DNA of 64,000 nt. It comes from an uncultured Gallionellaceae bacterium. GTDB lineage: Bacteria; Pseudomonadota; Gammaproteobacteria; Burkholderiales; Gallionellaceae. Positions 13,084 through 30,531 of this stretch are shown in pieces. Position 1 is the stretch's first letter. The number at the start of each line of letters is the position of its first letter. The translations under genes and the position numbers were made by a program. The notes below the pieces were generated by a model. It did not search any database. It had not been told where the DNA came from and worked only from the letters and a program-made list of their open reading frames with translations. Where the stretch lies: positions 10,029-74,028 of the forward strand of contig CAZNAD010000010.1 in assembly GCA_964571195.1 (NCBI GenBank). The letters run 5' to 3'.

Positions 13084-13085
13084 AT

Positions 13086-13217: not shown

Positions 13218-13484
13218 GATGGCCTGGCAAATTTTCCCCGGTTACATATGGTAAAAAAATGCTGAGTTATTCAACTTTATCGCCCCAGAGGCGGGAATCT
13301 TTAGCGCTGATTCCAAGGGCATGCCCCACCCATACAAGATGCACTTTATATGCATCAGACACCGGCCACATCATCCAAATGGGGTATATCCCCAAATTTC
13401 GCTGCTGAATTCGGCTATGATTCCGCCGCGATTTGTTCGACAGACACCATCAGAGTGTCGCTTTAAGTCAAAACAGGGGGAGAT

Positions 13485-14333
13485 ATGGGGCAACAGGAAG
13501 TCACTACAGGGAGCTTGTCGGTTCGTCTGCCAGACGGTCGGCGTTTGGGGTATGCGGAATATGGTGTGCCTCATGGCAGGCCGGTGCTGTTTTTTCATGG
13601 CGCGCCGGGTTCGGCTTATGTGCATGCGGATATGGCTGAGATCGCGGCACAACGTGGCGTGCGGCTGATCGGAGTAGATCGCCCCGGATATGGGGTGTCG
13701 GATGTACATCAGAGCCACAGCTTTTTAAGCTGGGCGGACGATGTTGCCGCATTCACAGCTGCACTGGGCATTGCCCGGTTTTCTATCATCGGGTTTTCAG
13801 CGGGGACGCCGTATGCACTTGCCTGTGCATTTAAATTCCCGGATAGGGTCAAACAGGTTGTCTTGGTTGGTGCAATTGTCCCCGGTGTCACTGAGGGTGT
13901 GCCGCCGCTGGTCTGCGGACTTTATGCGCTGGCTCAAACCAATCCAGATGAGTTGAGAAAAACCTTTTCCGCAGTTGCGCCATCGGCATCCGCATTGCTC
14001 GGGGTGGTGTTGTCCAATGTCGCGGAAGTGGACAAGCAAATATTGCATGACCGGACTTCGGATTTCGAGCTGGAGTATGCGCGGACATTGCAGGTCGGCA
14101 TTGAAGGGGTTGCTTCGGACTATATGTTACTTGCCAACGACCAAGGCTTTTCCGTGGATGAAATCGATACCGAGGTTCATTTGTTTAGCGGAACTGTCGA
14201 TCAAAACACCCCGCCAGCCATGACGGAATTCTTCGCATCGCGACTTCCCCGCAGTCGGGTTCATCGCTTACAAGATAAGGGGCATTATATTTTGTACACG
14301 CACTGGGATGAGATATTGAAGTGTTTGAGCTAA
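13485..14333 (+). CDS. Alpha/beta-fold hydrolase
   Basis: 282 aa with HGAPGS (oxyanion region) and a nucleophile elbow GFSAG. AGGGGGAG RBS. Confidence 0.8.
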   Translation: MGQQEVTTGSLSVRLPDGRRLGYAEYGVPHGRPVLFFHGAPGSAYVHADMAEIAAQRGVRLIGVDRPGYGVSDVHQSHSFLSWADDVAAFTAALGIARFSIIGFSAGTPYALACAFKFPDRVKQVVLVGAIVPGVTEGVPPLVCGLYALAQTNPDELRKTFSAVAPSASALLGVVLSNVAEVDKQILHDRTSDFELEYARTLQVGIEGVASDYMLLANDQGFSVDEIDTEVHLFSGTVDQNTPPAMTEFFASRLPRSRVHRLQDKGHYILYTHWDEILKCLS

Positions 14334-14338
14334 GTGCG

Positions 14339-14442
14339 CGGATTTAATCCCCTCTCCTACTGGGAGAGGGAGTGCTCTTGATTCGTAGCCCTCATCCTAA
14401 CCCTCCCCCGGAGGGGGGGGGAAGCAGAAGCGATTAAATCGG
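14339..14442. repeat. REP/MITE-like palindromic element between convergent genes
   Basis: 9-bp terminal inverted repeat GATTTAATC...GATTAAATC enclosing the hairpins CCCTCTCC-tactg-GGAGAGGG and CCCCC-gga-GGGGG. Contains a G9 run (14413-14421). Confidence 0.55.
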
Positions 14443-14449
14443 CACGTCC

Positions 14450-15577
14450 CTAAGACTCGCTGATGTGAGCAAGCGTCCCTGTCGCCAGCAACATCAGCAA
14501 TTCAGACTGACTGCGTGTGTCGGTTTTGCCAAACACGGATTTGAGTTGTGTTCGTGCGGTCGAGATCGAGATGCCCAGGTCGTCTGCGGCTTCTTCAATT
14601 GTTCTGAGTGCGGCCAGTCTGGCGGCAAGCCGGGCTTCCGCCGGAGTGATTTTGTAAAGTGTGACCAGTCGCTTTGGCGACAACTGCAAGCCACCGGGTC
14701 TGGACAAAAATAGAGCGGCACACTCTGAGCTATTGGCGGAATTCAGGATGGATGCCATCTCTGGCGAAACCGGGGTGACGACGCAATGCAGAAAATCGTT
14801 CCTGCCGGGCATCGAGATACGCATGTCGCCGCCCACACCGAATGAGGTGTCCGATATCAGCTTATGCAGTTGCGCTGTTTCGGCGGGGCTGTCGCTTGTA
14901 AGTCTATGGTGAAAAATGCCCAAACCTACATCTTGCGCCATCATCAATTCTGCCGCGCGGTTCATATAGAGTGGTGTGGCGGATCGGTTCGTCAGGATCA
15001 CGCCCATACGCATCTGATCAAGCACCGTATGAGCCTGCTCTTTTTCGGCGGCCACGGTATGAAACTTGTGATGTATTTGGACGGCACGTTTAACGTGAGG
15101 CGCAAGGATGCTCATCAATTGAGCTTCTTCTTCACCAAATGCGCCATCCTGTTTGCCCCGCTGAATTCCCAATACTAATGAACGGTTGTCGTCCTTGAGC
15201 AGAATTACGCCTAGTGCATGGACTTTATCTTGGGGGCGGAGGAAGTCATTGAAGTATTCGGTCTTGCGCAACTTATGCTGATCAATATGCTGGTCGGATA
15301 TGAAGATTTTCCCCGGTGCATGTTGATTCATTACGTGGTCGAAGTAGTCCACCTTGGCGTAGTGTTCGCAGTAAGTTATTCGCCAAGCGGGGTCGTAGCC
15401 GACACTTGCGTTAAAAGTCGCCGATGCGGCTTGTGTTTCATTGGAGCGCAAAATGGCCGATGAACCGCCGAGTGCAGCTGTGAAGCTATCCAGGAATGGA
15501 GCCCACTTGCTCTCGTCGAGCGCGGCATCGTAAATCATGCCCACTAGCTGGAGTGTTTTATCGGTTGAGTCGCTCAT
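14450..15577 (-). CDS. LuxR-family transcriptional regulator (C-terminal HTH, N-terminal sensory region)
   Basis: C-terminal LuxR/GerE-type HTH (TPAEARLAARLAALRTIEEAADDLGISISTARTQLKSVFGKT). 375 aa. Confidence 0.8.
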   Translation of the reverse strand: MSDSTDKTLQLVGMIYDAALDESKWAPFLDSFTAALGGSSAILRSNETQAASATFNASVGYDPAWRITYCEHYAKVDYFDHVMNQHAPGKIFISDQHIDQHKLRKTEYFNDFLRPQDKVHALGVILLKDDNRSLVLGIQRGKQDGAFGEEEAQLMSILAPHVKRAVQIHHKFHTVAAEKEQAHTVLDQMRMGVILTNRSATPLYMNRAAELMMAQDVGLGIFHHRLTSDSPAETAQLHKLISDTSFGVGGDMRISMPGRNDFLHCVVTPVSPEMASILNSANSSECAALFLSRPGGLQLSPKRLVTLYKITPAEARLAARLAALRTIEEAADDLGISISTARTQLKSVFGKTDTRSQSELLMLLATGTLAHISES

Positions 15578-15663
15578 CGACTGTATTTGAGATTGGTGTC
15601 CGGCAAAAGATTACCAGTAATCTCGATTTTTGGTGAGGGGGCGGCGGGGGGCTGACGCACGAT

Positions 15664-15801
15664 CTATGGAAGGTCTGATTAAGTCCGTTCGTGGTGAGTG
15701 TTTCCCGTTCGCTCCCTCGATACACCGCGCAAGCGCGGCACTTGGGACGAACGGGAAACTTATCGAACCATGGTTTTCGGACTTAATCAGACCTTCCCTA
15801 T
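15664..15801. repeat. MITE-like long palindromic element with perfect 20-bp terminal inverted repeats
   Basis: GGAAGGTCTGATTAAGTCCG (15668-15687) is the exact reverse complement of 15778-15797. Inner 12-bp arms are GTTTCCCGTTCG (15700-15711) and CGAACGGGAAAC (15748-15759). Central palindrome is CCGCGCAAGCGCGG (15725-15738). Flanked by CTAT on both sides. Confidence 0.7.
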
Positions 15802-17489
15802 CCATTTATGCTCTTCTTGCCTTGCAACAGGGCTTGTGCGAATAATTGCTGCCATCCTTCGGCGGCAAGCTCGCCCCCGTGTAGGGTGGTCTGATGCACC
15901 ACATAATTGACTGCGTCGCTGTTTTTAATAAGCGAGCGATGCAGCCAAATTCTGGTTTCATTGATGAGCTGTTCGATCTCTTCCGGGGTGAAGGTCTCCG
16001 ATTCGGATAACCAGGAAACGGCAATCGTTGTATCAAATAATCCCCAGATTCCTTTTTGATCTCCATTCATCATTTCTACGCTCTTGGGAATAGAGCCGGT
16101 CTTTTTGAGTTTGGTGCACAAGCCACCGAGCATGTCGTTGGAAATGAGCTTCTGCTTGTTGTCGAAGCGAATCAATAACAGTGTTGCATGCGCCTCTTCG
16201 TTGCGTGATAACGTGGATTGCACCACGTTCTGTTCCAGCACCTTGGCAGTTGATGCGGCATAAAGTCGTGCGAGGGAGAAATAGGCGATGCCCAACATCA
16301 CTGGACCGGCCAGATTGATGTAGGTATTGGTGAAGTTGATGCAGGCGAATGAAAAAACGATCAGGATGGTTTGGGATAGTCCGAACATGCTGTCGATCTT
16401 GTCGCGCCCCTTGTCGCGATAGAACGCCCATGCGGTGAGCCAGATGATGGAAAGTGATAACAGCAGGAACCAGATTCTGCCTTCCGGGAAACGCAACGAG
16501 TCGCCGTGTTTGAGATTATCTATGGCGGTGGCCAGTATCTCGACACCGGGGAAGGTCTTGGCCATCGGGGTGGCGCTGGCATCGTACAGATTCGGGGCAG
16601 TCGAGCCGATGATGACGATCTTGTCTTTGAATTCGTTCTTGTCGCGCTCGCTATTTTTGTCGCGCAAGCTGGAATAGGCGTCTGCAAAACTGATGTGTCG
16701 GTAACTAAACGGTTGGCCGCGCCAATTTAACAGGATGTGTTCGGTGGCGGGTTCGGGCCAGTTGAATTCGCGCGCGATCCGCGCCGCCATGGAGGGCAGC
16801 CGCCAGCCGTATCCCTCGAAGTAAACGGGATAGCTGCGCAGCACACCATCCGAGTCGAGGATCACATTCTGTGTACCCAGTCGTCCTCCGGCCAATGCGG
16901 ATGGGAAGTAGGGCAGAACCATGTTGATGGCGGCATCTTCTTCGGTCGTTTCATCGGGGACGCGGGTTGCACCGGGGATTTGCGCGATTTTGATTTGCCG
17001 CAGGGTTTCGCTGGAAGAATCGAGAAACAACATCGGGAAGAAGGTGTTGCTGGTTTTTGCGATGCTGGCATCAAATGCGGCATCACTCTTAGGGTTGAAT
17101 ACATCGGCATCGCTGAACAGCACATCGAATACAACCGCTTTGGGTAGGTCTTCTTCTAGCCGCGTTACAAAGTCGCCGATCACAGAGCGCGGCCACGGCC
17201 AGCGACCGTAAGTTTTGGACATCGCTGTCAGGCTGGCTTCGTCGATGTCAATAATGACGATATCGGGGTCGGGCTGGGGCGGTGCCAGCCGGTAGCGCAC
17301 CATCAAATCGAAAGCCGCCGTGCGGATGTCGCTGGTGATGTGCAAAAAGCCGGTATCCAGCAGCGTAAATAGCGTGAATACGATAGCCAGGTACACGTAG
17401 AAATTACGCTTCCATTTGCGCGCCAGAAAATGGGTGAGATTCGCGCTGGCGAGACGTATTCGGATAAGTGCGAGGGGTTTTAGTTTCAC
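15798..17489 (-). CDS. CHASE2-domain membrane sensor with a short atypical cytoplasmic C-terminal domain
   Basis: 563 aa. N-terminal TM helix, then about 300 aa periplasmic region with CHASE2-like motifs (IVIIDIDEASL, GRWPWPR, GVLR), then 3 TM helices, then about 150 aa tail with no kinase, GGDEF or complete cyclase motifs. Confidence 0.7.
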   Translation of the reverse strand: MKLKPLALIRIRLASANLTHFLARKWKRNFYVYLAIVFTLFTLLDTGFLHITSDIRTAAFDLMVRYRLAPPQPDPDIVIIDIDEASLTAMSKTYGRWPWPRSVIGDFVTRLEEDLPKAVVFDVLFSDADVFNPKSDAAFDASIAKTSNTFFPMLFLDSSSETLRQIKIAQIPGATRVPDETTEEDAAINMVLPYFPSALAGGRLGTQNVILDSDGVLRSYPVYFEGYGWRLPSMAARIAREFNWPEPATEHILLNWRGQPFSYRHISFADAYSSLRDKNSERDKNEFKDKIVIIGSTAPNLYDASATPMAKTFPGVEILATAIDNLKHGDSLRFPEGRIWFLLLSLSIIWLTAWAFYRDKGRDKIDSMFGLSQTILIVFSFACINFTNTYINLAGPVMLGIAYFSLARLYAASTAKVLEQNVVQSTLSRNEEAHATLLLIRFDNKQKLISNDMLGGLCTKLKKTGSIPKSVEMMNGDQKGIWGLFDTTIAVSWLSESETFTPEEIEQLINETRIWLHRSLIKNSDAVNYVVHQTTLHGGELAAEGWQQLFAQALLQGKKSING

Positions 17490-17535
17490 TTTAGACGGAG
17501 ATCAGTAGGGGCGTCTCAGAAATCGTTAAAAATGC

Positions 17536-18150
17536 TTATATGCCTAAAGACATGAGCAAATATACATGATCGACTGACAATTTTGGACTTAACTGGGTGT
17601 CAGCCTCATAACGTTCAAATCCCAAACGAAATAAAGGTTGGTTCGCATTTGTGGTGTGGAATGATACGCCGCTTCCCCAGATCAATGAATTTGAACCCGC
17701 GTAACTTTCTCCTCCCGTGCAGGTGGTGCAAGAGATCAAGGTGTAAAGCCCATTGACGGTGCCAAGCTTGCCAAACACTCGCCAGCTATCACTAACTGGG
17801 ATATATCCAATCGCGGACAGGCTGGTGCTGAGCAAAGATGCGCTGGCAATTTGGGTGTTTCTGCTGTTGTTGTCGGAATAAATTTTCCAGTCGGTATAAG
17901 CGACGCCCGTTTCGAGGGCGAGGTATTTGTTGGGCTGGTAGCCCAAGATTCCCGCGTACGAATTTCCCGGCAAATAGGTGACCGTATTGCGTGTTGGGAA
18001 AGTGCCGCCTAATGCAATGCCGCCATAAAGCGATGTGCCAGCCGCTACGTCGGCTGAAATCGCCAGCATAAAGGCGGCGGCAACAGCGGAGTTTTGTACC
18101 CGCAGACGGAGAAAGAGGCTGATTTTATTCAAGATATGGGGCGTATGCAC
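17536..18150 (-). CDS. Small outer-membrane beta-barrel protein (OmpW/OmpA-barrel-like)
   Basis: 204 aa. Signal peptide (..ADVAAG). Alternating amphipathic Gly/Tyr-rich strands (LYGGIALGG, ALETGVAYTDWKIY). Confidence 0.65.
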   Translation of the reverse strand: MHTPHILNKISLFLRLRVQNSAVAAAFMLAISADVAAGTSLYGGIALGGTFPTRNTVTYLPGNSYAGILGYQPNKYLALETGVAYTDWKIYSDNNSRNTQIASASLLSTSLSAIGYIPVSDSWRVFGKLGTVNGLYTLISCTTCTGGESYAGSNSLIWGSGVSFHTTNANQPLFRLGFERYEADTQLSPKLSVDHVYLLMSLGI

Positions 18151-18465
18151 GATAGGGATGGCTCAAAAATCAATCTGTTATCTAATGTTTGATGTCTGGA
18201 TTCGGCTCAGGGCGTACTTTGGCACAAACTCGCCGACGAGACATACCCCATTTGGATGATGCGGCACGGTGCGACGTGCAGGTATAGTTGCCGCTGTGAT
18301 TTCAGCACTCAGCGGGCTTGCCGGGGAAGCGCTTGTCAAGTTTCGGGGCGTGGGGTAAATTGCGTTCGCGCTGTATCTACGGGGGGCCGTTGCGTAACGG
18401 TGCGGGAATCAGGATTCATTTCGAGGTTTTATTTTATTAACTTTAGAGTGTCGGGAGTGTTAGAA

Positions 18466-19071
18466 ATGTCAAAAATCACCAAAGCATTGTTGTTGTCCGT
18501 TGTTGCATTCGGCCTCGCTGCCTGTGAGACGAATCCACCTAAAGAAGCACCAAAAGCCAAGGTGGCTGATTGCACCTTCCCAAGTTCACCTGATGTGGCT
18601 GCACCGGACTGGGTCTGTACTGGTTCGGCAGAAGGCGTGGAAGTGAGTGCGGTAGGTTCGGAGAAGATCGTTTCCGGCGAAACTGATTTTGCGCAGACCA
18701 TGGCCATTGCTTCGGCGCGCCTCAAGCTGGCAGGGCAAATGAAGACACACGTGACCGGTATGGTTAAGAAATATATGGAGACCACTGGAGCGGGCAACAG
18801 CGCTACCGTAGATAAGGTGAACACTTCGGTCACCAAGCAGATTACCAACGAAACATTGGTTGGCAGCAAGATGTTCAAGAGCCGCACATCGCCGGACGGC
18901 ACTGTTTACGTGTTGGTCGGTCTGGATGAAAAAGCAGTTCAGAAAAATACTGAAACAGCCGTCAAGACCAGCATGGGTAACGATCAGGCGCTGTGGCAGC
19001 AGTTCAAGGCCAGCAAGGCTCAGGATGAATTGGCGGCCGATATCGCCAAGCAGAAATTAGACGCAAAATAA
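18466..19071 (+). CDS. LPP20-like lipoprotein
   Basis: ATG at 18466 (MSKITKALLLSVVAFGLAAC: lipobox LAAC). Paralogue of 8749-9264. The ORF-track N-terminal extension from 18256 is Cys/Arg-rich and looks non-coding. Confidence 0.75.
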   Translation: MSKITKALLLSVVAFGLAACETNPPKEAPKAKVADCTFPSSPDVAAPDWVCTGSAEGVEVSAVGSEKIVSGETDFAQTMAIASARLKLAGQMKTHVTGMVKKYMETTGAGNSATVDKVNTSVTKQITNETLVGSKMFKSRTSPDGTVYVLVGLDEKAVQKNTETAVKTSMGNDQALWQQFKASKAQDELAADIAKQKLDAK

Positions 19072-19095
19072 ACTCATGAAGCTGTGACCGTATGG

Positions 19096-19129
19096 ATGCC
19101 TATACCCTTTCGGGTGTAGGCATTTTTTA
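19096..19129 (+). terminator. Rho-independent terminator
   Basis: ATGCCTATACCC-tttc-GGGTGTAGGCAT followed by T6. Confidence 0.75.
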
Positions 19130-19190: not shown

Positions 19191-19952
19191 ATGTACACGA
19201 CAATCAAAGCAATACTTTATTTGCTGATATCGCTCTCGGCGAGCGCATGTTTTGCTGCGGAGCGTATCGAGATCGTAAAATCAGATGGTGAGGTGACGGT
19301 CAGTAAATCCGCCGGTGCCCAATCTAAGGTTGTGTCAGCCGGAAAAGCTTTGCCTTCGGTCAATACGTTATCTACCGGAGCTGGCGGACGTGCGGTCGTG
19401 CGGGTGGGAAACACGGGTTACCTCGTGCTGGAAAAAAACAGCTCGGTCGAGATCAATGCGGCCAATACCTCGGCCAGTTTCTTCCGGCAACTGACCGGCA
19501 AGATTTATTACGCGGTGAATACCCTCAAGGGGAAATCGCACACGCTTGAGGTGAGAACCAAGGTTGCTACCATCGGTGTGCGCGGCACACGCTTTCTGGT
19601 GACGGACGATACGGAACGTAACGAGATCGGTATGCGCAAGGGAGAGGTCAATGTTGCCACCACGGGAGAGGAATTCGAGGTGCATAAACAGTTGGCACAA
19701 GAAGAGTGGGAGGCGATGAAGCAAGAGGCGCAGGCTGCGATCAATAAGGAAAAGTCCGATTTCGAGACGTATAAGGAAAACACGCAGAAGGAGTTCGTCG
19801 AATACAAGCGCGAACTTCTCTTGGGGGCGGATCGGATGTTGGCGTTTGATGGCAAGCGTGTGGATGATCGTCCCTTGGGTGGTGACACCAAGGCAGATAT
19901 GGAAAGCCTGGAAAACTATGCTGGGCAGTGGTTGAATAAAGTTAAAGATTAA
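19191..19952 (+). CDS. Exported FecR-domain protein with a coiled-coil C-terminus
   Basis: Signal peptide (..SACFAA). FecR-like motifs (GRAVVRVGNTGYLVLEKNSSVEI; ATIGVRGTRFLV). Charged helical tail. Confidence 0.75.
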   Translation: MYTTIKAILYLLISLSASACFAAERIEIVKSDGEVTVSKSAGAQSKVVSAGKALPSVNTLSTGAGGRAVVRVGNTGYLVLEKNSSVEINAANTSASFFRQLTGKIYYAVNTLKGKSHTLEVRTKVATIGVRGTRFLVTDDTERNEIGMRKGEVNVATTGEEFEVHKQLAQEEWEAMKQEAQAAINKEKSDFETYKENTQKEFVEYKRELLLGADRMLAFDGKRVDDRPLGGDTKADMESLENYAGQWLNKVKD

Positions 19953-19958
19953 AGGGGG

Positions 19959-20363
19959 ATGGAAATGAAGCGTATTGGTATTTGCCTGATCATGTTGTTA
20001 AGCGTTCTGGTGTCGGCATGTGCGACTCCTGCGGCACCCGTCGCGGCTAATGCAAGACCGGCATGGATAGACAATCCGGGAGATGGTGTATCGGCTTCGG
20101 CGGGTATGCATGTACGCGGCAAAGCCATGCAGGAAGAGTTGGCGATCTCGCGTGCCAGAGTCGAGTTCGCAAAACGCTTTGGCGTGACGATAGAGTCCGT
20201 CGGGATCTATACCAAGAATATGGCAGGTGGAAAGTCAACAACGACCGGCAGTCAGGTCTCGCAAGAGCAAAGTAAACAAACTGATGTGAAAGCCATGGTG
20301 AAAGCAAAATGGCACGATCAGGAGGCTGATGTGCTGTACGTTTGGCTGGTTCCCAGTAATTAA
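19959..20363 (+). CDS. LPP20-like lipoprotein
   Basis: Lipobox LVSAC. PAWIDNPGDG...GKAMQEELAISRARVEFAKR resembles LPP20-family sequences. 7-nt gap after the FecR gene. Confidence 0.6.
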   Translation: MEMKRIGICLIMLLSVLVSACATPAAPVAANARPAWIDNPGDGVSASAGMHVRGKAMQEELAISRARVEFAKRFGVTIESVGIYTKNMAGGKSTTTGSQVSQEQSKQTDVKAMVKAKWHDQEADVLYVWLVPSN

Positions 20364-20449
20364 ATCTTAACGGCCTGTATGGGGGGCAGCGTTGGAGGTG
20401 CCCCGCTGTCGAAATGGTTTATCGGATTTTGTTTGGAGAGGAATGGCAT

Positions 20450-21955
20450 ATGGATGTGACGAGGGGTCGGAAAGCGGCAAGGTTATTCTCGGTGGCGGGG
20501 CTACTGTGTTTGCCTTTGAACGGTGCGTTTGCGCAGGATGACTTCGAGGCATACCGCCGCCAGCAAGCTCAGGGGGCGCAACAGGAAAAAGCCAGATTCG
20601 ATGTTTACAAAGAGCAGCAAGACCGCGAATTTGCCGGATTCCTGAAAAGCCAGTGGAGCGAATTCGAAACCTTTCAGGGCAAGGTGCGGATCAAAGAGCC
20701 CAAGCCCAAGCAACCCCCGGTCGCTTTGCCTGTTGTGGTTGCGCCTACCGCCAAGCCTGTTCCAGTCACGCCTCCCGTTGCTGTGGCACCGTTACTCGCG
20801 CCGGTGACCCCTCCGCCACCTCCGGCGCAACCCAAGCCCGTTACCGTTGGAGCCGATCAGTTAGATTTGATGTTCTACGGTAATGCAGTGGGATTTGCGT
20901 TCGATCCGCAATGGAAAACCTATCGCTTAACCGGCGGAGCCAAACCGGAAACCATCAGTGAGTTCTGGACCACGATGAGCGGCAGTAAATACGAGGCGAC
21001 ACTTCAGGCGATCAATGCGGCGCGCAAAGAGTTAAAGCTGGATGATTGGGGGTATGTCACATTGTGGCGCGATGTGGTGCGCGCGCTGCAACCGGAACGC
21101 CAGTCCGAGCAAAATCTGTTGCTTTGGTTCTTTCTGGTCAAGTCGGGATATGACGTGCGCCTGGGGTATTACGAGAAAGATGTGTTCCTTTTTGTAGCCA
21201 TCAAACAGCCTGTGTATTCGACGAAATACACCAGAGTTAACGATCAAACTTATTATGCGGCGCTGGCTGCCGATCACGGCAATGGCATCCGGGCTTTCTA
21301 CAGCTATAAATCAGACTATCCGGCAAAGCTGAAAGCGCTGGATATAAAATCCGCCGCCACCGGATTTACCAAGACGGTTTCCGCGCAACGCGAACTCGCT
21401 TTCGACTACAAGGGGAAAACGATCAAGCTCTCCGTTCCCTATGATCGCCGTTTGGTCGAATATATGAGCACGTTTCCCCAATCCGAATTCGAGTTGTATT
21501 TTGATACGGACGGTAGCTCCGTGTTGAAAGGCGCGTTACTCGCTGAATTGAAAAAATATACGGCTACGATGAGCGAAGAAGAGGCGGTGAATTTCCTGCT
21601 TGCCTTCGTCCAGAAAGCCTTTGCCTACAAGACCGATGATGATCAATTCGGTGCCGAAAAATACTTCTTCGTTGAAGAGTCGCTGCACTTCCCTTACAAC
21701 GACTGCGAAGACCGCTCTGTGCTGTTTGCTTGGCTGGTACACGAACTGGTCGGGATCAAAGTGGTCGGCTTGCTTTATCCGGGGCACATGACCACGGCTG
21801 TCGAATTAAAACAGGTGAACGACGAATTTTTCACCGTGACCTACCAAAACAAGCGGCTGGTCGTCGCCGACCCAACGTATATCGGGGCATCAGTCGGCAT
21901 GGCGATGCCTTCTTATGCCAAATACAAACCTAAGCGGGTGGTGGAGATTCAGTGA
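20450..21955 (+). CDS. Exported protein with a Pro-rich linker and a C-terminal transglutaminase-like (Cys-His-Asp) core
   Basis: Signal peptide (..NGAFAQ). PKPKQPPVALPVVVAPTAKPVPVTPP linker. Putative triad context YNDCEDRS ... YPGHMTTAV ... VVADPT. Confidence 0.6.
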   Translation: MDVTRGRKAARLFSVAGLLCLPLNGAFAQDDFEAYRRQQAQGAQQEKARFDVYKEQQDREFAGFLKSQWSEFETFQGKVRIKEPKPKQPPVALPVVVAPTAKPVPVTPPVAVAPLLAPVTPPPPPAQPKPVTVGADQLDLMFYGNAVGFAFDPQWKTYRLTGGAKPETISEFWTTMSGSKYEATLQAINAARKELKLDDWGYVTLWRDVVRALQPERQSEQNLLLWFFLVKSGYDVRLGYYEKDVFLFVAIKQPVYSTKYTRVNDQTYYAALAADHGNGIRAFYSYKSDYPAKLKALDIKSAATGFTKTVSAQRELAFDYKGKTIKLSVPYDRRLVEYMSTFPQSEFELYFDTDGSSVLKGALLAELKKYTATMSEEEAVNFLLAFVQKAFAYKTDDDQFGAEKYFFVEESLHFPYNDCEDRSVLFAWLVHELVGIKVVGLLYPGHMTTAVELKQVNDEFFTVTYQNKRLVVADPTYIGASVGMAMPSYAKYKPKRVVEIQ

Positions 21956-22020
21956 GCCTGTATTCGCTGACAGGGGTGTTCCCCGCCCGCTTGAGAAACG
22001 GCCTGACTATGGACGCTGTA

Positions 22021-22398
22021 ATGCGCATCTCAAAATTCTTTATGATTGCTGCGCTGCTGGTGACTGTGGCGGCCTGCGACAAGAAAGTCGAAGTCACGGA
22101 AGCTGCGCCCGCTGGCAAGGTCGAGGCGCAACAGGCTTTGCCGGCTGTGCAGCCGAAGCATGATCTGCCGTCGTCGGAGCAGCCGAAGCATGCTGACGAG
22201 TCGCCGGGAAAAAAGGCCGGAAACGAGGTTAACGGCGGGGAGCATAAACCAGTCGCCAAACCGGAAAGCGCAGAACAGGTCTTGGAGAGCGTCATTCCCA
22301 ATAGGCAGGAGCCGGAGGATGCGCGTGTCGCCGAACAAAAGCGGCGCGGCAAAAAGGCGGAAGATGAGATGTTGCAGGAGATTGACAAATATAAGTGA
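22021..22398 (+). CDS. Low-complexity (Lys/Glu/Pro-rich) lipoprotein
   Basis: ATG at 22021 (MRISKFFMIAALLVTVAAC: lipobox VAAC). The rest is predicted disordered. Confidence 0.55.
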   Translation: MRISKFFMIAALLVTVAACDKKVEVTEAAPAGKVEAQQALPAVQPKHDLPSSEQPKHADESPGKKAGNEVNGGEHKPVAKPESAEQVLESVIPNRQEPEDARVAEQKRRGKKAEDEMLQEIDKYK

Positions 22399-22524
22399 CG
22401 ACTGCGCGCGCAGCCCAATACGAACGAGCAGCATGGGAATGCGATTTTTCAGTGACGTTGTTCGGGCAAATATCCGAGCCGTGTTTACGGTAACGTACGG
22501 AAATATTTAAATCAGAGGTTAGCA

Positions 22525-25458
22525 ATGAACTACTTCACTCTATTGAAACGTGTTGCTCCGATGAGCGCAACCGCGTTTTTTCTGGGAGGTCTCTTTCTCT
22601 GCGGTTTACAACCGGTTTACGCGGGAGACCCGCCCGCCGAGCCTATGTTGCGCTTCGATCTCGGCGAACACACAGGTGTGCTTCGCCGCATTGCAGTGGA
22701 CGATGAAGGCCGCTTTGCTGTGACATCTTCAGATGACAAGACGGCGCGGGTGTGGAGTTTGCCGGACGGGCGTTTGCTTTCTACCTTGCGCGTTCCCCTC
22801 AGTGGCGGTAACGAGGGCAAACTGTTTGCCGTGGCGATGTCGCCCGATGGCAATACCGTTGCCTTGGGTGGGTGGACTGGTTGGGACTACGAGAATTCGA
22901 TGTCTATTTTTCTTTTTGATCGAGCCAGTGGTCGCATGTTGCGCCGCCTGACCGGTTTGCCGGAGGTGATCAATCACCTCGCGTTTTCACCCGATGGCCG
23001 CCTGCTGGCGGCGTGCATGGGGAGTCAAAGTGGTATTCGCCTGTTTTCCGTAAGTACCGGACGCTTGTTGGCGGAAGATGCGGACTATGGTGCCAGCAGC
23101 TATTCTGTGCATTTCAGTCGCGACGGGCGTTTGCTGGCCAGCAGTTACGATGGTTATCTGCGCATGTACCGCTGGAATGGACAAACATTGAGCCTGCTGG
23201 CCAAACGTACCGTTCCCGGCGGGAGTCAGCCGGAAGGGGCACGATTTTCACCGGATGGTACACGCATAGCCGTGGGATTCAGTGACTCGACAGCGGTCAA
23301 TGTGTTGGATGGGGATGATCTCAGTTTCTTGTATGCGCCGGATACTGCGGGCGTAGGTGCGAAATTAAGCAGTGTGGCGTGGTCTGCCGATGGTCAAACG
23401 CTGTACGCAGGCGGGCAGGCGCAAGCTAAATATGATGAAGGGTGGCGACAATATATCCGCCGCTATGAGCAGGCTGGGCGCGGGGCAGCACAGAACATCC
23501 CGGTGGTCACTGACAGCATTATGGCGCTGGTTCCCTTGCCCGATGGTGGTTTGGTGTTCGGATCGGCGGCCTCTTCATGGGGCATGCTGGATGCTCAAGG
23601 CCGGCGTGTATTGCTTCATACGCCAGTGATTCCCGATTATCGGAATCTATTGGAAGGATTCACCTTGTCTGCCGATGGTACGCAGGTGCGTTTCGGTTAT
23701 GAATGGCCAGGCAAGTCTCCTGTGGTGCTCGATAGTCGTACCCGCAGCCTGTTGGCGGATGATGTCCCCGGTTTGATCCCCCCTGTGGTCAGTATGCCAG
23801 GTCTGGATGTGACCGGCTGGGAACACACGACCGCTCCCAAGCTCAACGGAACTGCACTCCCGCTCCAGTCATATGAGTTCTCGAGCAGCATGGCGTTCGC
23901 GCCGGATGGCAGTGGTTTGGCGCTGGGGTCAAGTTGGAATTTGCGCTTTTTCGACCGTAATGGCAATAAGCGCTGGGGACATCCAACCCCCGGTTCCGCG
24001 TGGGCTGTGAATATATCTCAGGACGGACGTTGGGTTGTGGCAGCCTATGGCGACGGCACGATACGCTGGCATCGAGCCTCCGATGGTGTCGAGCAGATGG
24101 CGTTCTTCCCGCATGCGGACAAGAAGCGCTGGGTGATGTGGACACCCTCCGGTTATTACGCTGCATCACCCGGCGCGGAAGACTTGATCGGTTGGCATCT
24201 GAATAACGGCAAAGATCGTGCGGCAGACTTCTTCCCGGCTTCGCGTTTCCGCGAACGTTATTATCGTCCCGATGTGCTGGCGAAAGTCTTTGATACGCAG
24301 GACGAAGCCCAGGCTGTGCAGATGGCGAATGCCGAATCCGGCCGTAGACAGACTGCGATGGCTTCCATCGCGGAGATATTGCCGCCGGTAGTGGAAATCA
24401 TTTCTCCTGTCGCTGACGCTCCTGTCCGGTCGAGCAAAGTCACCGTGCGCTACCGTGTGCGCACGCTGCCCGATGCGCCGGTGACGGGCATCCGTGTTCG
24501 TGTGAACGGACAGTCGGTCAGCGCGGAACGCGCATTAAAACGCAAGGAGGAATCCGGCAACGAAATTCGCGAGGTTGAGGTCGACATCCCGGAACAGGAT
24601 AGCGATATCGCGCTGTTTGCCGAGAACAAGAACGGTATTTCCACGGCCGCATTGTTGCACCTTGAATGGGCGGGTAAAAAAGCTGCTGTCGAAGCGGTGC
24701 AATTCAAACCCAAACTGTATGTACTGGCGGTGGGGGTGTCGAAATACAAGAACCCGGACTACAACCTGGGATTGGCCGCAAAAGATGCAAAAGACTTCGC
24801 TGCCGTGCTGCAAAAACAGCAGGGTAGACTGTATGGCGAGGTCGTGGTCAAGCTGCTTACCGATAACGGTGCGACACGTGATGATGTGGTGGACGGATTG
24901 GAGTGGTTGAAGCAGCAAGTGACTACCCGCGACGTGGGCATGATGTTCATTGCCGGTCACGGCATGAACGACAACCAGGGCAAATATTTCTTCTTGCCGC
25001 ACAATGCCGATCCAGACAAGTTATTGCGTACCGGTGTGGCGCAGACCGACATTCGCGATACGCTGAATTCGCTAGCGGGCAAGGCCGTATTCTTTGTGGA
25101 CACCTGTCATGCGGGTAATGCGTTGGGCACCTCCAAGACCCGCGCCATTGGCGGTACGGCAGATGCCTTCATCAACGAACTGGGTTCGGCGGAGAACGGT
25201 GTGGTGGTGTTTTCATCTTCTACCGGAAAACAGTTATCGCAGGAGAATCCTGCCTGGGGTAACGGCGCTTTCACCAAAGCGGTGGTCGAGGGCTTGAGTG
25301 GCAAGGCGGACTTTACCAAGAATGGCAAAATCACTCATAAGGGGTTGGATTATTACGTTACCGAGCGCGTGAAAGAGCTGACCAAGGGGCAACAGTCTCC
25401 GGTTGCCATCGCACCGAATGGCATCACGGATTTCCCGATCGCGGTGGCAGGGAAATAA
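22525..25458 (+). CDS. Exported WD40-repeat / Ig-like linker / caspase (peptidase C14) fusion protein, copy B
   Basis: 977 aa. Signal peptide (..QPVYA|GD). 57 of 85 hand-aligned N-terminal residues are identical to copy A. Dyad motifs MMFIAGHGMND and VFFVDTCHAGN. Confidence 0.85.
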   Translation: MNYFTLLKRVAPMSATAFFLGGLFLCGLQPVYAGDPPAEPMLRFDLGEHTGVLRRIAVDDEGRFAVTSSDDKTARVWSLPDGRLLSTLRVPLSGGNEGKLFAVAMSPDGNTVALGGWTGWDYENSMSIFLFDRASGRMLRRLTGLPEVINHLAFSPDGRLLAACMGSQSGIRLFSVSTGRLLAEDADYGASSYSVHFSRDGRLLASSYDGYLRMYRWNGQTLSLLAKRTVPGGSQPEGARFSPDGTRIAVGFSDSTAVNVLDGDDLSFLYAPDTAGVGAKLSSVAWSADGQTLYAGGQAQAKYDEGWRQYIRRYEQAGRGAAQNIPVVTDSIMALVPLPDGGLVFGSAASSWGMLDAQGRRVLLHTPVIPDYRNLLEGFTLSADGTQVRFGYEWPGKSPVVLDSRTRSLLADDVPGLIPPVVSMPGLDVTGWEHTTAPKLNGTALPLQSYEFSSSMAFAPDGSGLALGSSWNLRFFDRNGNKRWGHPTPGSAWAVNISQDGRWVVAAYGDGTIRWHRASDGVEQMAFFPHADKKRWVMWTPSGYYAASPGAEDLIGWHLNNGKDRAADFFPASRFRERYYRPDVLAKVFDTQDEAQAVQMANAESGRRQTAMASIAEILPPVVEIISPVADAPVRSSKVTVRYRVRTLPDAPVTGIRVRVNGQSVSAERALKRKEESGNEIREVEVDIPEQDSDIALFAENKNGISTAALLHLEWAGKKAAVEAVQFKPKLYVLAVGVSKYKNPDYNLGLAAKDAKDFAAVLQKQQGRLYGEVVVKLLTDNGATRDDVVDGLEWLKQQVTTRDVGMMFIAGHGMNDNQGKYFFLPHNADPDKLLRTGVAQTDIRDTLNSLAGKAVFFVDTCHAGNALGTSKTRAIGGTADAFINELGSAENGVVVFSSSTGKQLSQENPAWGNGAFTKAVVEGLSGKADFTKNGKITHKGLDYYVTERVKELTKGQQSPVAIAPNGITDFPIAVAGK

Positions 25459-25497: not shown

Positions 25498-26928
25498 ATG
25501 GAGAACAACATGACGCGCATCTATTTCCTGGCAGTATTGCTGCTGTTTAGTCCGCCATCGTTTGCGGCCCAGCTTACGGGACAAGGCTGGGGCGACACCG
25601 AGGCTGCCGCCAAACGCGAGGCGCTGGCTGATATCTCCTCCCGCATCAGCGTGACGGTGCGCAGCAAGCTGAAAAACAAGAAGACGATCACATCGAAAAT
25701 TGACGATCAGAAGAGATCCGATTCGGTGAATCAGGTGGCGGAGAGCACTGTTGAGACGGAGTCTGAACTGCCCATTCTCGGTGCGGAATTCAACAGCCAG
25801 AAAGCAGGCGAAAAATTCTTTGTGGAGGCTACGCTGGACGATGCCCGCAGCCAGCGTTTGTATGAGCAAAGGCTGAGTGAGTTGCGCCAACAGATTGCTG
25901 CGGCGCATGGGCGTTTTGCCAAGACGCAGGGTAATGAGGCGCAGTATTACTTGCTCATGGAGATGCTGACCCAACTGGAGGAATACAAAAAACTCAACAC
26001 GGTGGCGATCTATCTGGGCAGCGCGCCAGCCGAACCTGCCGTGAGTGAGGCCGTGTTACGTCAGCAATTGCGCTCGGTCACCCAGCAAGTCGATAGTCTG
26101 GATCTGGCAGCCAAATTGCTGGCGGCGGACATTGCCGAGACCGGTATCTATGTGTTCCCCGCCAAAGCTCGCGGCGCCGATGAGATCACGCCATTCGCCG
26201 CCTTGTTAAAAGATAAGGTGGGCGCGAATCTCAAAACGGTGCGTGAGCCGTATGCCGCGACATATACGCTGACAGGTGAATATGCCGAGTCGGCAGATGG
26301 TATTGATGTCACTTATCAGCTGGTCGATAAAGACTCCTCTACGTTGCTGAGCCGCAGTGTGCGTCTGGCCAGGGCCGCCTACGCCGGGCTGGAGACCAAG
26401 CCGAAGACCGTCAGTTTCGAGCAGCTTCTTAAAGCCGGAGTGGCCATTTCGGGCGATCTGCATGTCGATATATCAACCAGCCAGGGCAAACACGATTTGC
26501 TGTTCACTGAAGGCGAGGAAGTCGAGCTGTTCGTCAAATTGAGCGAGGCCGGATATTTCTATGTGGTGGGACACACCATCAAGGATTCCGAAAAGAATTC
26601 CTATCTGCTGGAACTGCGCGACGTGGAAGGGCCGCGTAAATTCGTCCAGTTCGTCAATGCGGATGATGCCAACAAGCTGATCAGCATCGGCAAGTTCGAA
26701 GTGAGTGTGCCGTTCGGCGTGGAAGGCTTGCAGGTGTTTGCATCCAGCAAGGATCTGCTGGAAAGCTTGCCCCCGACCCGGCACGACAGCGCAAGCGGCC
26801 TTTACCTCATCTCTGCTTCGCCGCAGGAAGGGGTGACCAAAACGCGGGCGCTGATAAAAAAGAAAAAACAGGCTGCGCAGACTGCCGAGGGTTCGCTGAT
26901 ATTTACGACACAGCCAGCCCGGCCTTAG
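25498..26928 (+). CDS. Exported protein with an LPP20-like N-terminal domain and a DUF4384-like C-terminal domain
   Basis: Signal peptide (..PPSFAA). GQGWGDTEAAAKREALADISSRISVTV is LPP20-like. The C-terminal GEEVELFVKLSEAGYFYVVGH...FEVSVPFGVEGLQVFASS matches my recollection of DUF4384. Confidence 0.6.
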   Translation: MENNMTRIYFLAVLLLFSPPSFAAQLTGQGWGDTEAAAKREALADISSRISVTVRSKLKNKKTITSKIDDQKRSDSVNQVAESTVETESELPILGAEFNSQKAGEKFFVEATLDDARSQRLYEQRLSELRQQIAAAHGRFAKTQGNEAQYYLLMEMLTQLEEYKKLNTVAIYLGSAPAEPAVSEAVLRQQLRSVTQQVDSLDLAAKLLAADIAETGIYVFPAKARGADEITPFAALLKDKVGANLKTVREPYAATYTLTGEYAESADGIDVTYQLVDKDSSTLLSRSVRLARAAYAGLETKPKTVSFEQLLKAGVAISGDLHVDISTSQGKHDLLFTEGEEVELFVKLSEAGYFYVVGHTIKDSEKNSYLLELRDVEGPRKFVQFVNADDANKLISIGKFEVSVPFGVEGLQVFASSKDLLESLPPTRHDSASGLYLISASPQEGVTKTRALIKKKKQAAQTAEGSLIFTTQPARP

Positions 26929-28261: not shown

Positions 28262-29029
28262 TCAGAGCGGTGCGGCGGGTTGCTGCCCGACCAGCCGCAG
28301 CAGGCGTTGCATGTCGAGCAATTCTATCGATTTGTTGCGCACCTCAATCAGCCTGGTTTCCTGAAACGCGGACAGCGTGCGGCTGACCGTTTCCAGCTTC
28401 AGACCCAGATAACTGCCGATCTCTTGCCGGGTCATGCGCAATCTGAAGGCGGAGGGCGAATATCCTCGTGCGGCAAAGCGGTGCGATAGATTGAGCAGAA
28501 ATGCCGCCAGACGTTCTTCCGCGCGCATCGAGCCGAGTAACAGCATGATGCCTTGGTCGCGTACGATTTCGCGGCTCATGATCTTGTGCAGATGACGTTG
28601 CAGGTTGGGCAGCCTGCGGCTGAGGTCTTCCAGCCGGTCGAAAGGCAGTTCGCAGACTTCGCTGTCTTCCAGCGCTACCGCATCGCAAGTGTGGATGTCG
28701 GTGCTGATCGCATCCAGACCAATGATCTCGCCCGGCATCTGAAAGCCGGTCACTTGTTCGCGCCCGTCTTCGTGCAGTACCTGAGTCTTGAAGAAACCGG
28801 TACGAATCGCATACAAAGACTGGAAACTGGAGCCGCTGCGGTACAGATAGTCGCCTCGCCGGTAGGCGCGCTTCAGGCCAGTCAGGCTTTCCAGTTGGCG
28901 TACCTCCGCCTCGGTAAAATCCGCAGGCAGGCAGAACTCGCGCAGATTACAATTGGAGCAGGCGATCTGGGTCGGTGTGATGGAGACGGCTCGTTGCACG
29001 TTGTACTTTGTTTTATAGGGGTATTGCAT
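28262..29029 (-). CDS. fnr: FNR-type oxygen-sensing Crp/Fnr family regulator
   Basis: ATG at 29029. N-terminal Cys cluster C-x2-C-x5-C (CSNCNLREFC) plus a later Cys (DIHTCDAV). cNMP-binding-like fold. C-terminal HTH (TRQEIGSYLGLKLETVSRTL). Confidence 0.88.
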   Translation of the reverse strand: MQYPYKTKYNVQRAVSITPTQIACSNCNLREFCLPADFTEAEVRQLESLTGLKRAYRRGDYLYRSGSSFQSLYAIRTGFFKTQVLHEDGREQVTGFQMPGEIIGLDAISTDIHTCDAVALEDSEVCELPFDRLEDLSRRLPNLQRHLHKIMSREIVRDQGIMLLLGSMRAEERLAAFLLNLSHRFAARGYSPSAFRLRMTRQEIGSYLGLKLETVSRTLSAFQETRLIEVRNKSIELLDMQRLLRLVGQQPAAPL

Positions 29030-29056
29030 CCCCGGAGTGCAAATATGACACGGATT

Positions 29057-29070
29057 TTGACCTATATCAA
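29057..29070. promoter_or_regulatory. FNR box in the fnr/hemN divergent intergenic region
   Basis: TTGAC-CTAT-ATCAA matches 9 of 10 positions of the TTGAT-N4-ATCAA consensus. It lies 55 nt upstream of the hemN ATG. Confidence 0.65.
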
Positions 29071-29124
29071 ACCCAATTTGGGCACTACTGGCATAGTGCG
29101 ACGATACAAACCGGTAAGAATGAG

Positions 29125-30531
29125 ATGAACAAGAACACAGAATACGCAGCAGGAAAACTCGAAGTCGATCTGGATCTGATCCGCAGGCTGGACAAGAACG
29201 GGCCGCGATATACCTCCTATCCCACGGCAGACCGTTTCGTCGAGGCATTCAATGCCGAGACCTATGCGGACTGGTTGGGCAAGCGTGAGATCGGCGGTAT
29301 CAGTCGCCCCTTGTCGTTGTACGTGCACATCCCGTTTTGCAACACGCTGTGTTTCTACTGCGCCTGCAACAAGGTCATCACCAAAGACTTCAGCAAGGCG
29401 GGAGAGTATGTCCGTTATGTCAGCAAGGAACTCGCCATGCAGGCTGCATTGCTCGGCGACGGGCGACGGGTCGAGCAATTGCACTTCGGCGGCGGCACGC
29501 CGACCTTCCTGAGCAATGACGAGATCCGCGAACTGATGGGCGCGATACGCAACAACTTCGAGCTGATCGAGAACGGCGAGTATTCCATCGAGATCGATCC
29601 GCGTAAGGTGAGCGACGAGACGGTCGCTCTGCTCGGCGAGATGGGCTTCAATCGTATCAGTATCGGCGTGCAGGACTTCGATCCCGAAGTGCAGAAGGCG
29701 GTGAACCGTATCCAGAGCGAAGAAGAGACACTACAGGTCATCAAGGCGGCGCGGGCCAACGGCTTTAAATCGGTGAGCATCGACCTGATCTATGGCTTGC
29801 CCAAACAGAATCTGGCCGGTTTCAAGGCCACGCTGGACAAGGTCATCGCAGCCGGAGCCGACCGCTTGTCCATCTACAACTACGCGCATATGCCGGCATT
29901 GTTCAAGCCGCAACGCCGCATCCATGAGGAAGATATGCCGACCGGGCAGCTCAAGCTCGACATTCTCAGTCTGGCAGTGAAGACGCTGACCGACGCGGGT
30001 TATGTCTATATCGGCATGGATCACTTCGCCAAGCCGGAAGACGAGCTTGCGGTGGCGCAGCGCCAGGGCCGTTTGCACCGCAACTTTCAGGGGTATTCGA
30101 CACATTCCGATTGCGACTTGGTCGCGGTCGGGGTGAGCTCCATCGGCAAGATCGGGCCGACCTACAGCCAGAACTTCCGCGAGTTGGAGGACTATTACGA
30201 CGCGCTGGATCGTAACACGCTGCCCATCATGCGCGGTATGGAGCTGAATGCCGATGACCTGGTGCGGCGCGCCATCATCCAGGCGCTGATGTGTCATTTC
30301 GAGATATCGAAGGAATCGTTCAACATCGCTTATCTGATCGATTTCGACCAGTATTTTGCCACCGAGCTGAAGGAGTTGGTCGAATACGAAAAAGAGGGCT
30401 TGCTGAAGATCTCGCCGCATTGGATCAGTGTTACCCCCAAAGGGCGTATGCTCATTCGCAACATCTGTATGGTCTTCGACAAGTATCTGCGCACTAAACA
30501 GGAACACGCCCGCTACTCCAAGGTCATCTGA
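29125..30531 (+). CDS. hemN: Oxygen-independent coproporphyrinogen III oxidase (radical SAM)
   Basis: ATG at 29125. PRYTSYPTADRF N-terminal signature. Radical-SAM CxxxCxxC (CNTLCFYCAC). Confidence 0.92.
   Translation: MNKNTEYAAGKLEVDLDLIRRLDKNGPRYTSYPTADRFVEAFNAETYADWLGKREIGGISRPLSLYVHIPFCNTLCFYCACNKVITKDFSKAGEYVRYVSKELAMQAALLGDGRRVEQLHFGGGTPTFLSNDEIRELMGAIRNNFELIENGEYSIEIDPRKVSDETVALLGEMGFNRISIGVQDFDPEVQKAVNRIQSEEETLQVIKAARANGFKSVSIDLIYGLPKQNLAGFKATLDKVIAAGADRLSIYNYAHMPALFKPQRRIHEEDMPTGQLKLDILSLAVKTLTDAGYVYIGMDHFAKPEDELAVAQRQGRLHRNFQGYSTHSDCDLVAVGVSSIGKIGPTYSQNFRELEDYYDALDRNTLPIMRGMELNADDLVRRAIIQALMCHFEISKESFNIAYLIDFDQYFATELKELVEYEKEGLLKISPHWISVTPKGRMLIRNICMVFDKYLRTKQEHARYSKVI

Follow-up and report, generated by a model that had tools for sequence, protein, structure and literature searches.

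Which compartment, and which substrates, would a bacterial caspase homologue serve when its catalytic domain is joined to WD40 repeats and preceded by a hydrophobic signal sequence? Two genes in a 64,000-nucleotide (nt) stretch of DNA from an uncultured Gallionellaceae bacterium (GenBank assembly GCA_964571195.1, contig CAZNAD010000010.1, positions 10,029 to 74,028 of the forward strand; hereafter the window) raise this question. Bacterial caspase homologues are discussed almost wholly as cytoplasmic effectors of cell death or immunity. Here, we propose with a probability of about 0.7 that both genes encode Sec-exported cysteine endopeptidases on the C14B side of the Peptidase C14 family, which would be located in the envelope, probably cleave after Arg or Lys and pick their substrates via the propellers formed by the WD40 repeats.

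Copy B is the open reading frame (ORF) at 22525-25458 on the forward strand and encodes a protein of 977 residues with a signal peptide, two WD40 propellers, an immunoglobulin (Ig)-like domain and a C14 domain, as assigned from the ORF, Pfam and AlphaFold2 (AF2). Copy A, its paralogue at 9292-12243 on the reverse strand, encodes 983 residues including a signal peptide (residues 1-24, AHA↓GE), His825 and Cys874 (DTCYSG). Residue numbers refer to copy B unless stated otherwise. The two proteins are 61% identical over their full length and both genes carry AGAGG 5-6 nt 5' of the ATG, which in copy B reads as a Shine-Dalgarno-like element at 22514-22518 (forward strand), 6 nt from the start codon. 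Relative to copy B and most homologues, copy A has a 25-residue insertion in the Ig-like domain (copy A residues ~683-708). An origin of this insertion by internal duplication, considered since TRALKR occurs twice around it, was rejected because no repeat was found at the DNA level. The match of both ORFs to described domains and motifs is far beyond chance.

The catalytic domain and its predicted specificity

The Peptidase C14 domain (caspase/hemoglobinase fold) spans residues 728-977 (24706-25455, forward strand) according to PF00656, Foldseek and a profile alignment to 3bij. PF00656 matches residues 733-959 with 54.9 bits (Pfam cut-off 21.4). In a separate AF2 model of residues 606-977 with a predicted local distance difference test (pLDDT) value of 86.8, the closest structure found by Foldseek is Geobacter GSU0716 (3bij; E 1e-11), along with the MALT1 paracaspase (caspase-only chain 3v4o_A, TMt 0.75), fungal Yca1 and the plant metacaspases AtMC4/9, and more weakly procaspase-1. 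Searched against the PDB as a single sequence, the caspase domain gave no significant match; the family profile of the domain reaches GSU0716, with the KDA, GHG, DxCHSG and NGAFT motifs aligned. Conservation was assessed in an alignment of 58 homologues with 49-85% identity, all of which retain G811-H812-G813 and D859-x-C861. The catalytic His812 (A-G-H-G; codon 24958-24960, forward strand) aligns with SGHG of GSU0716 and the catalytic Cys861 (D-T-C-H-A-G; codon 25105-25107, forward strand) with DSCHSG. A first-pass annotation of the window had proposed a C-terminal C14 domain with an intact His/Cys dyad and had named a structural model as a check; the domain, the invariant dyad and the recovery of the fold with its GSU0716, MALT1 and metacaspase matches all bear this out.

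Three acidic residues are likewise invariant in the 58 homologues, namely D754 in the first helix of the domain (751-763), D859 two residues before the catalytic Cys, and E907 in the following loop. In MALT1, the S1 pocket that binds the P1 Arg is lined by Asp365 (α1), Asp462 (L4, two residues before Cys464) and Glu500 (L5), whereas caspases have Arg, Gln and Arg at these positions (PMC4357240). Because D754, D859 and E907 match the S1 positions of MALT1, the sequence predicts cleavage after Arg or Lys and not after Asp. The structural models point the same way, in that the nearest folds appear to be those of Arg/Lys-specific C14B enzymes. Both copies are thus predicted from their sequences to be intact, catalytically competent C14 proteases on the C14B (metacaspase/paracaspase/orthocaspase) side.

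The loop after the catalytic Cys (residues 863-878; 25111-25158, forward strand) is predicted to be disordered (pLDDT <50) and contains a basic K-T-R cluster that makes it a candidate autoprocessing site. It is the sole low-confidence stretch within the C14 domain in both AF2 models, and a Lys/Arg cluster (KTR, RR or RTR) occurs in this loop in essentially all 58 homologues. Maturation cleavage in the loop after the catalytic Cys is common among caspase-family enzymes. The conservation of a basic site in an enzyme predicted to be Arg/Lys-specific therefore suggests that the protein might process itself.

Propellers, spacer and predicted export

The N-terminal half consists of WD40 repeats that form tandem β-propellers with about 13-14 blades (residues 40-571; 22642-24237, forward strand), as judged from Pfam, PDB profile search, AF2 and Foldseek. 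PF00400 matches four stretches with 84.8 bits (Pfam cut-off 27) and the best match of the WD40 region in the PDB profile search is 2ymu (E 1e-83). The full-length AF2 model of copy B, built from the alignment of 58 sequences, has a mean pLDDT of 89.5 and a predicted template modelling score (pTM) of 0.84. It comprises a lone helix (12-27), unbroken β-structure (41-571), three helices (572-605), a β-sandwich (about 620-715) and an α/β domain (730-977). Foldseek matches the whole model to double seven-bladed WD40 propellers (Nostoc 2ymu, Aip1 1nr0), and a single seven-bladed propeller aligns with TMt 0.91; hence, the N-terminal ~530 residues are assigned to two propellers.

A helical segment (residues 572-606; 24238-24342, forward strand; DSSP helices 572-579, 582-591 and 594-605) follows the second propeller. 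Conservation within the family peaks at residues 481-606, i.e., in the last blades of propeller 2 (0.78 for residues 481-571) and this segment. Together with the high pTM of the full-length model, this suggests that the propellers and the protease might be held in a fixed arrangement. The subsequent Ig-like β-sandwich (residues 620-716; 24382-24672, forward strand), assigned from AF2 strands and Foldseek Ig/Fn3 matches, resembles titin Ig, Unc5 Ig and Fn3 modules, and the annotation of PF17957 (Big_7) in the homologues P0018, P0020 and P0086 supports its identity. A WD40-like region of ~550 residues and a β-rich, Ig-like linker of ~100 residues had both been expected from the first reading of the sequence and are recovered here.

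The same reading saw apoptosome logic in the combination of WD40 repeats with a caspase, and this part does not hold. Searches of the protein and its neighbours with Pfam, NCBIfam and PADLOC found neither an NB-ARC/NACHT nucleoside triphosphatase (NTPase) nor a death-fold adaptor or an oligomerisation module. The analogy fails because these defining features, the NTPase and the adaptor, are absent, and the matches to Apaf-1 reflect generic WD40 similarity. Moreover, the periplasm has no ATP, which also speaks against an apoptosome-like machine.

Signal peptides were called by a heuristic that considers n-, h- and c-regions and small residues at -3 and -1. The predicted signal peptide of copy B (residues 1-33; 22525-22623, forward strand) has K8/R9, the hydrophobic core AFFLGGLFLC (mean Kyte-Doolittle value 2.33) and an A-x-A-type site for signal peptidase I (VYA↓GD); residues 12-27 form an isolated low-confidence helix in AF2. 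Both copies passed the heuristic: their n-region is basic, their core hydrophobic and the residues at -3/-1 small, in line with the signal endings that had been pointed out before, VYA↓GD for copy B and AHA↓GE for copy A. Across the family, 102 of the 112 N-complete homologues have a signal-like segment that stops shortly before EPPxEPxLRI[DE], the conserved beginning of the mature protein, and in ~10 longer relatives a lipobox takes its place. Within the family, conservation is lowest in the signal region (0.25 versus 0.55-0.78 elsewhere), as expected for a signal peptide. Furthermore, Cys is extremely scarce in the mature proteins of the 58 homologues (about 940 residues, median 2 Cys), and 25 of them possess no Cys other than the catalytic one. 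This depletion fits an oxidising compartment because the enzyme must keep a free thiol there. By the same heuristic, all genes between 17536 and 26928 encode a signal peptide or lipobox, as against a minority of those in the rest of the window, and the named hosts of homologues belong to diderm phyla except for one metagenome-assembled genome (MAG) labelled Bathyarchaeia (L048; L numbers denote loci of relatives). Export of the mature protein, as the first-pass annotation had predicted, is therefore very likely, judging by the family-wide signal peptide or lipobox, the Cys-poor mature protein and the exported neighbours.

The family is large and widespread, not rare, and its members are often annotated as caspase proteins. 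A protein search gave 4200 matches at E<=1e-10; the architecture is shared by no fewer than 120 full-length relatives with at least 50% identity, some of them named "caspase family protein" or "WD40 repeat protein". Species-representative genomes contain at least 583 loci. Carriers include Gallionellaceae, Sulfuritalea, Rhodoferax, Paraburkholderia solitsugae, Azospirillum agricola and Nitrospirota as well as Acidobacteriota (including Holophaga foetida DSM 6591), Desulfobacterales, Geobacteraceae and Spirochaetota. The caspase domain alone yields 1792 clusters at 50% identity (E<=1e-30), and the best 150 of these clusters are mostly proteins of about 920-1100 residues with the domain at the extreme C-terminus. 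Caspase-domain matches of 284-410 residues were considered as a propeller-less architecture; this was rejected as most begin in the Ig-like/helical region and look like truncated metagenome fragments. A relative with 70% identity occurs as two paralogues in tandem (L081). Variants include lipoproteins of ~1360 residues (P0060, P0061, P0067, P0070, P0071, P0074 and P0075). P0060 was examined as the example of this group: Gln replaces the catalytic His in the equivalent of the C14 domain, and the protein ends in another, canonical C14 domain, so that this type looks like a tandem of pseudo-protease and protease. Another variant, P0028 from a Sideroxydans MAG (1563 residues), combines signal peptide, WD40, Ig and C14 domains with two FGE-sulfatase (SUMF1/PvdO-like) domains.

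Gene neighbourhood and competing explanations

Copy B belongs to a run of genes on the forward strand. The run begins with an LPP20-family lipoprotein (18466-19071; Pfam, lipobox GLAAC), just 3' of which lies a strong terminator-like hairpin (19094-19125, forward strand; 14-bp stem and T run). The LPP20 gene may thus be transcribed apart from the following genes, from FecR to DUF4384. These encode an exported FecR-domain protein (19191-19952; PF04773, 48.6 bits), a 134-residue lipoprotein (19959-20363; lipobox LVSAC), an exported 513-residue protein (20414-21955; likely start 20450), a Lys/Glu/Pro-rich and probably disordered lipoprotein directly 5' of copy B (21952-22398; lipobox LLVTVAAC followed by DKK), copy B itself and, 40 nt 3' of it, an exported LPP20 + DUF4384 protein (25498-26928; Pfam). 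For the latter, the PDB search was uninformative. The 513-residue protein has no match in Pfam, NCBIfam or the PDB. It has a signal peptide (...NGAFA↓QDD) and a Pro-rich linker, and by eye the spacing of NDCEDRS, YPGHMTT and VADPTY in its C-terminal part recalls transglutaminase-like cysteine peptidases. Its gene is conserved together with those of the LPP20 and 134-residue lipoproteins in the related loci L004 and L008, and L081 has a putative 508-residue ORF at its position. The ORF of the Lys/Glu/Pro-rich lipoprotein probably starts at an internal Met at about 22021, which gives the lipobox; it is conceivable that this protein is a substrate of the predicted Arg/Lys-specific protease.

On the reverse strand, an exported LPP20-like protein of 171 residues (8749-9264; signal peptide) is encoded directly downstream of copy A, and phmmer links it to LPP20 proteins of L004, L008, L011 and L025. 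Between the two copies lie the genes of an outer-membrane β-barrel protein and of a CHASE2 membrane receptor (15798-17489, reverse strand; PF05226, 180.5 bits). The FecR, DUF4384 and CHASE2 genes are all found within 11 kilobases of copy B. The C-terminal 183 residues of the CHASE2 protein match no known output domain. A degenerate cyclase in this position was rejected as a hidden Markov model (HMM) built from caspase-linked cyclases gave no match. The CHASE2 gene is followed on the same strand by the gene of a 375-residue protein with a C-terminus that by eye resembles a LuxR-type helix-turn-helix and without a Pfam hit. Farther away, a cbb3-type cytochrome oxidase cluster (ccoNOP, ccoG-/ccoI-like), an FNR-like regulator and hemN were recognised by eye in the translations at 128-8363 and 28262-30531, and these genes fit a microaerophilic betaproteobacterium. 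The best matches of the WD40-caspase likewise point to a betaproteobacterium that resembles Gallionellaceae.

To compare this context with that of relatives, ORFs within 6 kilobases of the caspase gene were clustered de novo at 80 caspase loci. Neither this clustering nor phmmer, iterated local HMMs or Pfam annotation of adjacent ORFs yielded a universal partner gene at the 80 loci. Among the recurrent neighbours are extra WD40 paralogues (17 of 80 loci), FGE-sulfatase protein genes (9), a DUF4384 protein of ~300 residues (8, mostly immediately upstream of the caspase gene), a CHASE2-nucleotide cyclase (6, downstream and either adjacent or with only FecR/DUF4384 genes between), an OmpA-C protein immediately upstream (5) and CHAT proteins (3). 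The gene set of the window recurs around orthologues in L004, L008, L011, L025 and L081. LPP20-DUF4384 genes stand downstream of the caspase gene in at least four further loci (orthologues directly downstream in L004, L011, L025 and L050), while the same architecture is found directly upstream in L012, and FecR genes adjoin the WD40-caspase in L004, L012, L072 and L084. L082, a metagenome contig, holds contractile injection genes (phage sheath, gp19, baseplate) and a kinase-TIR gene beside a relative (1-5600), which is probably coincidental.

These data can be combined into a mechanism for the envelope protease that we favour. Signal peptidase would cut at VYA↓GD in copy B and at AHA↓GE in copy A, and the mature protein would fold in the periplasm. 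The two WD40 propellers might serve as a protein-docking platform and the Ig-like domain as a spacer that connects them to the C-terminal caspase-fold domain. The protein would probably be synthesised as a zymogen and become mature once it is cut at the basic cluster of the disordered loop that follows the catalytic Cys, giving a self-contained envelope protease whose propellers choose the substrates. In the window, the likeliest partners or substrates would be the LPP20 proteins, the LPP20-DUF4384 protein, the FecR-domain protein and the Lys/Glu/Pro-rich lipoprotein, and a minority of lineages might have added a tie to FecR/CHASE2 receptor signalling. Within this scheme, the architecture, the fold, the conserved dyad and acidic residues at the S1 positions, the signal peptide shared across the family and the gene context are observed, whereas we infer export itself, the P1 preference, self-processing, what the propellers do and which proteins are cut. 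That the propellers bind a ligand outside the cytoplasm, as the first-pass annotation implied, is a conjecture.

Several points weigh against this mechanism. The signal peptide heuristic produces false positives, among them membrane anchors and at least one Rossmann-fold enzyme of the cytoplasm. The S1 assignment leans on sequence position and the published MALT1 residues, not on superposition, and both the zymogen state and its self-cleavage are purely conjectural. None of the neighbouring genes is a universal partner at the 80 caspase loci, and DUF4384 genes are adjacent in about 12 of them. The lack of a universal partner, combined with the caspase's occurrence at only one of 80 CHASE2-cyclase loci (see below), makes the proposal on substrates a weak one.

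The most serious alternative, although an unlikely one, is that the protein is a protease dedicated to signalling within an envelope module of FecR, DUF4384 and CHASE2 proteins. Its propellers would then sense a periplasmic cue or a partner, and cleavage of the FecR protein, the LPP20-DUF4384 lipoprotein or the CHASE2 domain would switch the receptor and its cytoplasmic output, a nucleotide cyclase in other lineages. The FecR (19191-19952), DUF4384 (25498-26928) and CHASE2 (15798-17489) genes near copy B are in favour of such a module. A CHASE2-cyclase gene follows the WD40-caspase gene immediately in L012, L017, L018 and L039, and a FecR gene lies between the two in L004 (with LPP20-DUF4384 in addition) and L072; L004 holds the entire gene set of the window plus the CHASE2-cyclase on one strand. 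The tightest arrangement is found in L012 (Nitrospirota MAG, 8047-18158), where genes for FecR-TPR, LPP20-like-DUF4384, WD40-caspase and CHASE2-adenylate/guanylate cyclase are joined by 4-nt overlaps, and L084 is arranged in the same way. In L012, an exported TPR-CHAT gene follows after a gap of ~210 nt, so that two caspase-fold proteases flank one CHASE2 receptor; a literature search found no paper linking CHASE2 with CHAT domains. The L012 operon led us to a reverse test of protease input to CHASE2 receptors with 80 metagenome loci of CHASE2-cyclase relatives. At these loci, FecR is adjacent in 21 cases and the WD40-caspase in one, and a general protease-CHASE2 coupling was rejected on this count. 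Conversely, CHASE2 is near only 6-7 of the 80 caspase loci, and the CHASE2 gene of the window lies on the other strand and encodes no recognisable output domain. FecR and CHASE2 hence form an independent and already known pair (PMC5192318), which recruits the WD40-caspase in only a few lineages. Slightly less likely still is the broader idea that the WD40-caspase is the input protease of an undescribed periplasmic module (FecR, LPP20/DUF4384, sometimes TPR-CHAT) that controls CHASE2 receptors and thereby cyclic nucleotides or some other output. If true, it would provide a testable input for CHASE2, a receptor that has been without a known stimulus since its description.

The remaining alternatives concern where the protein resides and whether it is active. 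By analogy with gingipains, it might be released past the outer membrane or displayed on the surface, for nutrition or for attack on other cells. The signal peptide, the Ig-like domain adjoining a clan CD catalytic domain and the lipoprotein variants, possibly surface-anchored, are compatible with this, and extracellular metacaspases have been speculated to act on neighbouring cells (PMC3501461). Yet neither copy has type I, II, V or IX secretion genes beside it or a C-terminal sorting domain, the C-terminus is a conserved core β-strand of the caspase fold (DFPIAV), and the neighbours are periplasmic or outer-membrane lipoproteins and not secretion machinery, so that release appears improbable. 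An uncleaved signal anchor that tethers a largely periplasmic protein to the inner membrane is a little less probable again: the presequence of copy B is long (33 residues, with a long h-region) and TMHMM-type tools often score such segments as transmembrane helices (PMC3501461), but ~100 homologues have small -1/-3 residues at a fixed distance from the mature start, copy A and most relatives have a short presequence of 20-25 residues, and some relatives carry a lipobox at the same place. We consider it very unlikely that the protein is a cytoplasmic conflict or abortive-infection caspase of the STAND, EACC1 or gasdermin type with a WD40 sensor of invaders. Fusion of WD40 repeats to a caspase is characteristic of these systems (PMC7159879, PMC3501461), and both NCBIfam caspase_w_EACC1 (76.8 bits) and the PADLOC model 'caspase' (44.7 bits) give weak matches of a generic kind. 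The scores of the EACC1 caspase model NF047832, 76.8 and 72.8 bits, fall short of its cut-off of 140, however, and neither the protein nor its neighbours contain an NTPase, EACC1, gasdermin or effector-associated domain; the conserved signal peptide, the reversed order with a C-terminal caspase and the neighbouring envelope proteins also disagree with this assignment. Least probable of all is a non-catalytic scaffold, a pseudo-protease in which the C14 fold merely binds partners. Pseudo-orthocaspases do exist (PMC6426788) and relatives of the ~1360-residue P0060 type have Gln for His in the equivalent domain, but that type possesses a second, canonical C14 domain, and the His, the Cys and the three acidic residues at the S1 positions are invariant in copies A and B and all 58 relatives.

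Comparison with known systems

The putatively exported WD40-caspase family is neither a one-off curiosity nor evidence of an apoptosome-like machine. Knowledge of the substrates of its members would extend the roles of the caspase fold to envelope biology. Cultivated carriers are Paraburkholderia solitsugae, Azospirillum agricola and Holophaga foetida, and since the family recurs beside DUF4384 and CHASE2, two domains without an assigned function, it gives experimental access to these as well. Literature searches found no experimental study of any member of this WD40-Ig-C14 subfamily, no periplasmic orthocaspase of this type and no biochemical characterisation of a C14 member from the bacterial periplasm.

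Among the accessory domains of prokaryotic caspase homologues, WD40 occurs most often (10.9%), and the catalogue of 2012 already noted WD40 fusions, probable N-terminal signal peptides and an extracellular role, and listed a signal-caspase-FGE-sulfatase architecture (PMC3501461). In the WD40 fusions described so far, the caspase is N-terminal and the WD40 region C-terminal, often with NACHT, and the proteins are treated as cytoplasmic (PMC3501461, PMC5756287). The window proteins differ from these in having a signal peptide, two propellers, an Ig-like domain and the C14 domain in last position, and in being predicted to be exported. Caspase conflict systems require NTPases or an EACC1 partner (PMC7159879). 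In Apaf-1 and STAND caspase systems, WD40 propellers are paired directly or indirectly with a caspase-family protease, as here; unlike in these systems, the window protein is without NB-ARC/NACHT and CARD/death-fold adaptor and shows no hint of oligomerisation driven by nucleotides, and the protease is covalently fused to the propellers and predicted to be extracytoplasmic.

On the side of the catalytic domain, orthocaspases such as Microcystis MaOC1 and Geobacter GSU0716 (3BIJ) share the His-Cys dyad and protein-interaction accessory domains and have the acidic S1 pocket that is predicted for the window proteins, and GSU0716 is the best structural and profile match of the C14 domain in the window. 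MALT1 has a similar catalytic domain with acidic residues at the Asp365/Asp462/Glu500 positions and an Ig-like domain beside the protease. In contrast to the window proteins, it is eukaryotic and cytosolic and becomes active by dimerising in the CBM complex. It also carries Ig3 on the C-terminal side of the protease, includes a death domain and lacks a propeller. Gingipains are exported clan CD proteases with an Ig-like domain and Arg/Lys specificity, but they use type IX secretion, end in a C-terminal sorting domain and have no propeller. Exported clan CD proteases of this kind (C25, C11, C13) belong to different MEROPS families from the C14 proteins of the window.

With regard to the propellers, prolyl oligopeptidase, DPP-IV and tricorn use a β-propeller as substrate filter or docking platform, although they are serine hydrolases of an unrelated fold, and TolB and BamB are propellers that function in the periplasm. 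Compared with these proteins, the window proteins have canonical WD40 repeats (PF00400) together with a C14 catalytic domain. The genomic context has a precedent in FecR-CHASE2 pairs, for example in a Burkholderia operon that regulates biofilm formation (PMC5192318). The described pairs contain no protease, whereas the window and several related loci hold a WD40-caspase along with the FecR protein and the CHASE2 receptor. The window proteins are thus a variant of the bacterial WD40-caspase theme, set apart by their predicted export, domain order and envelope context.

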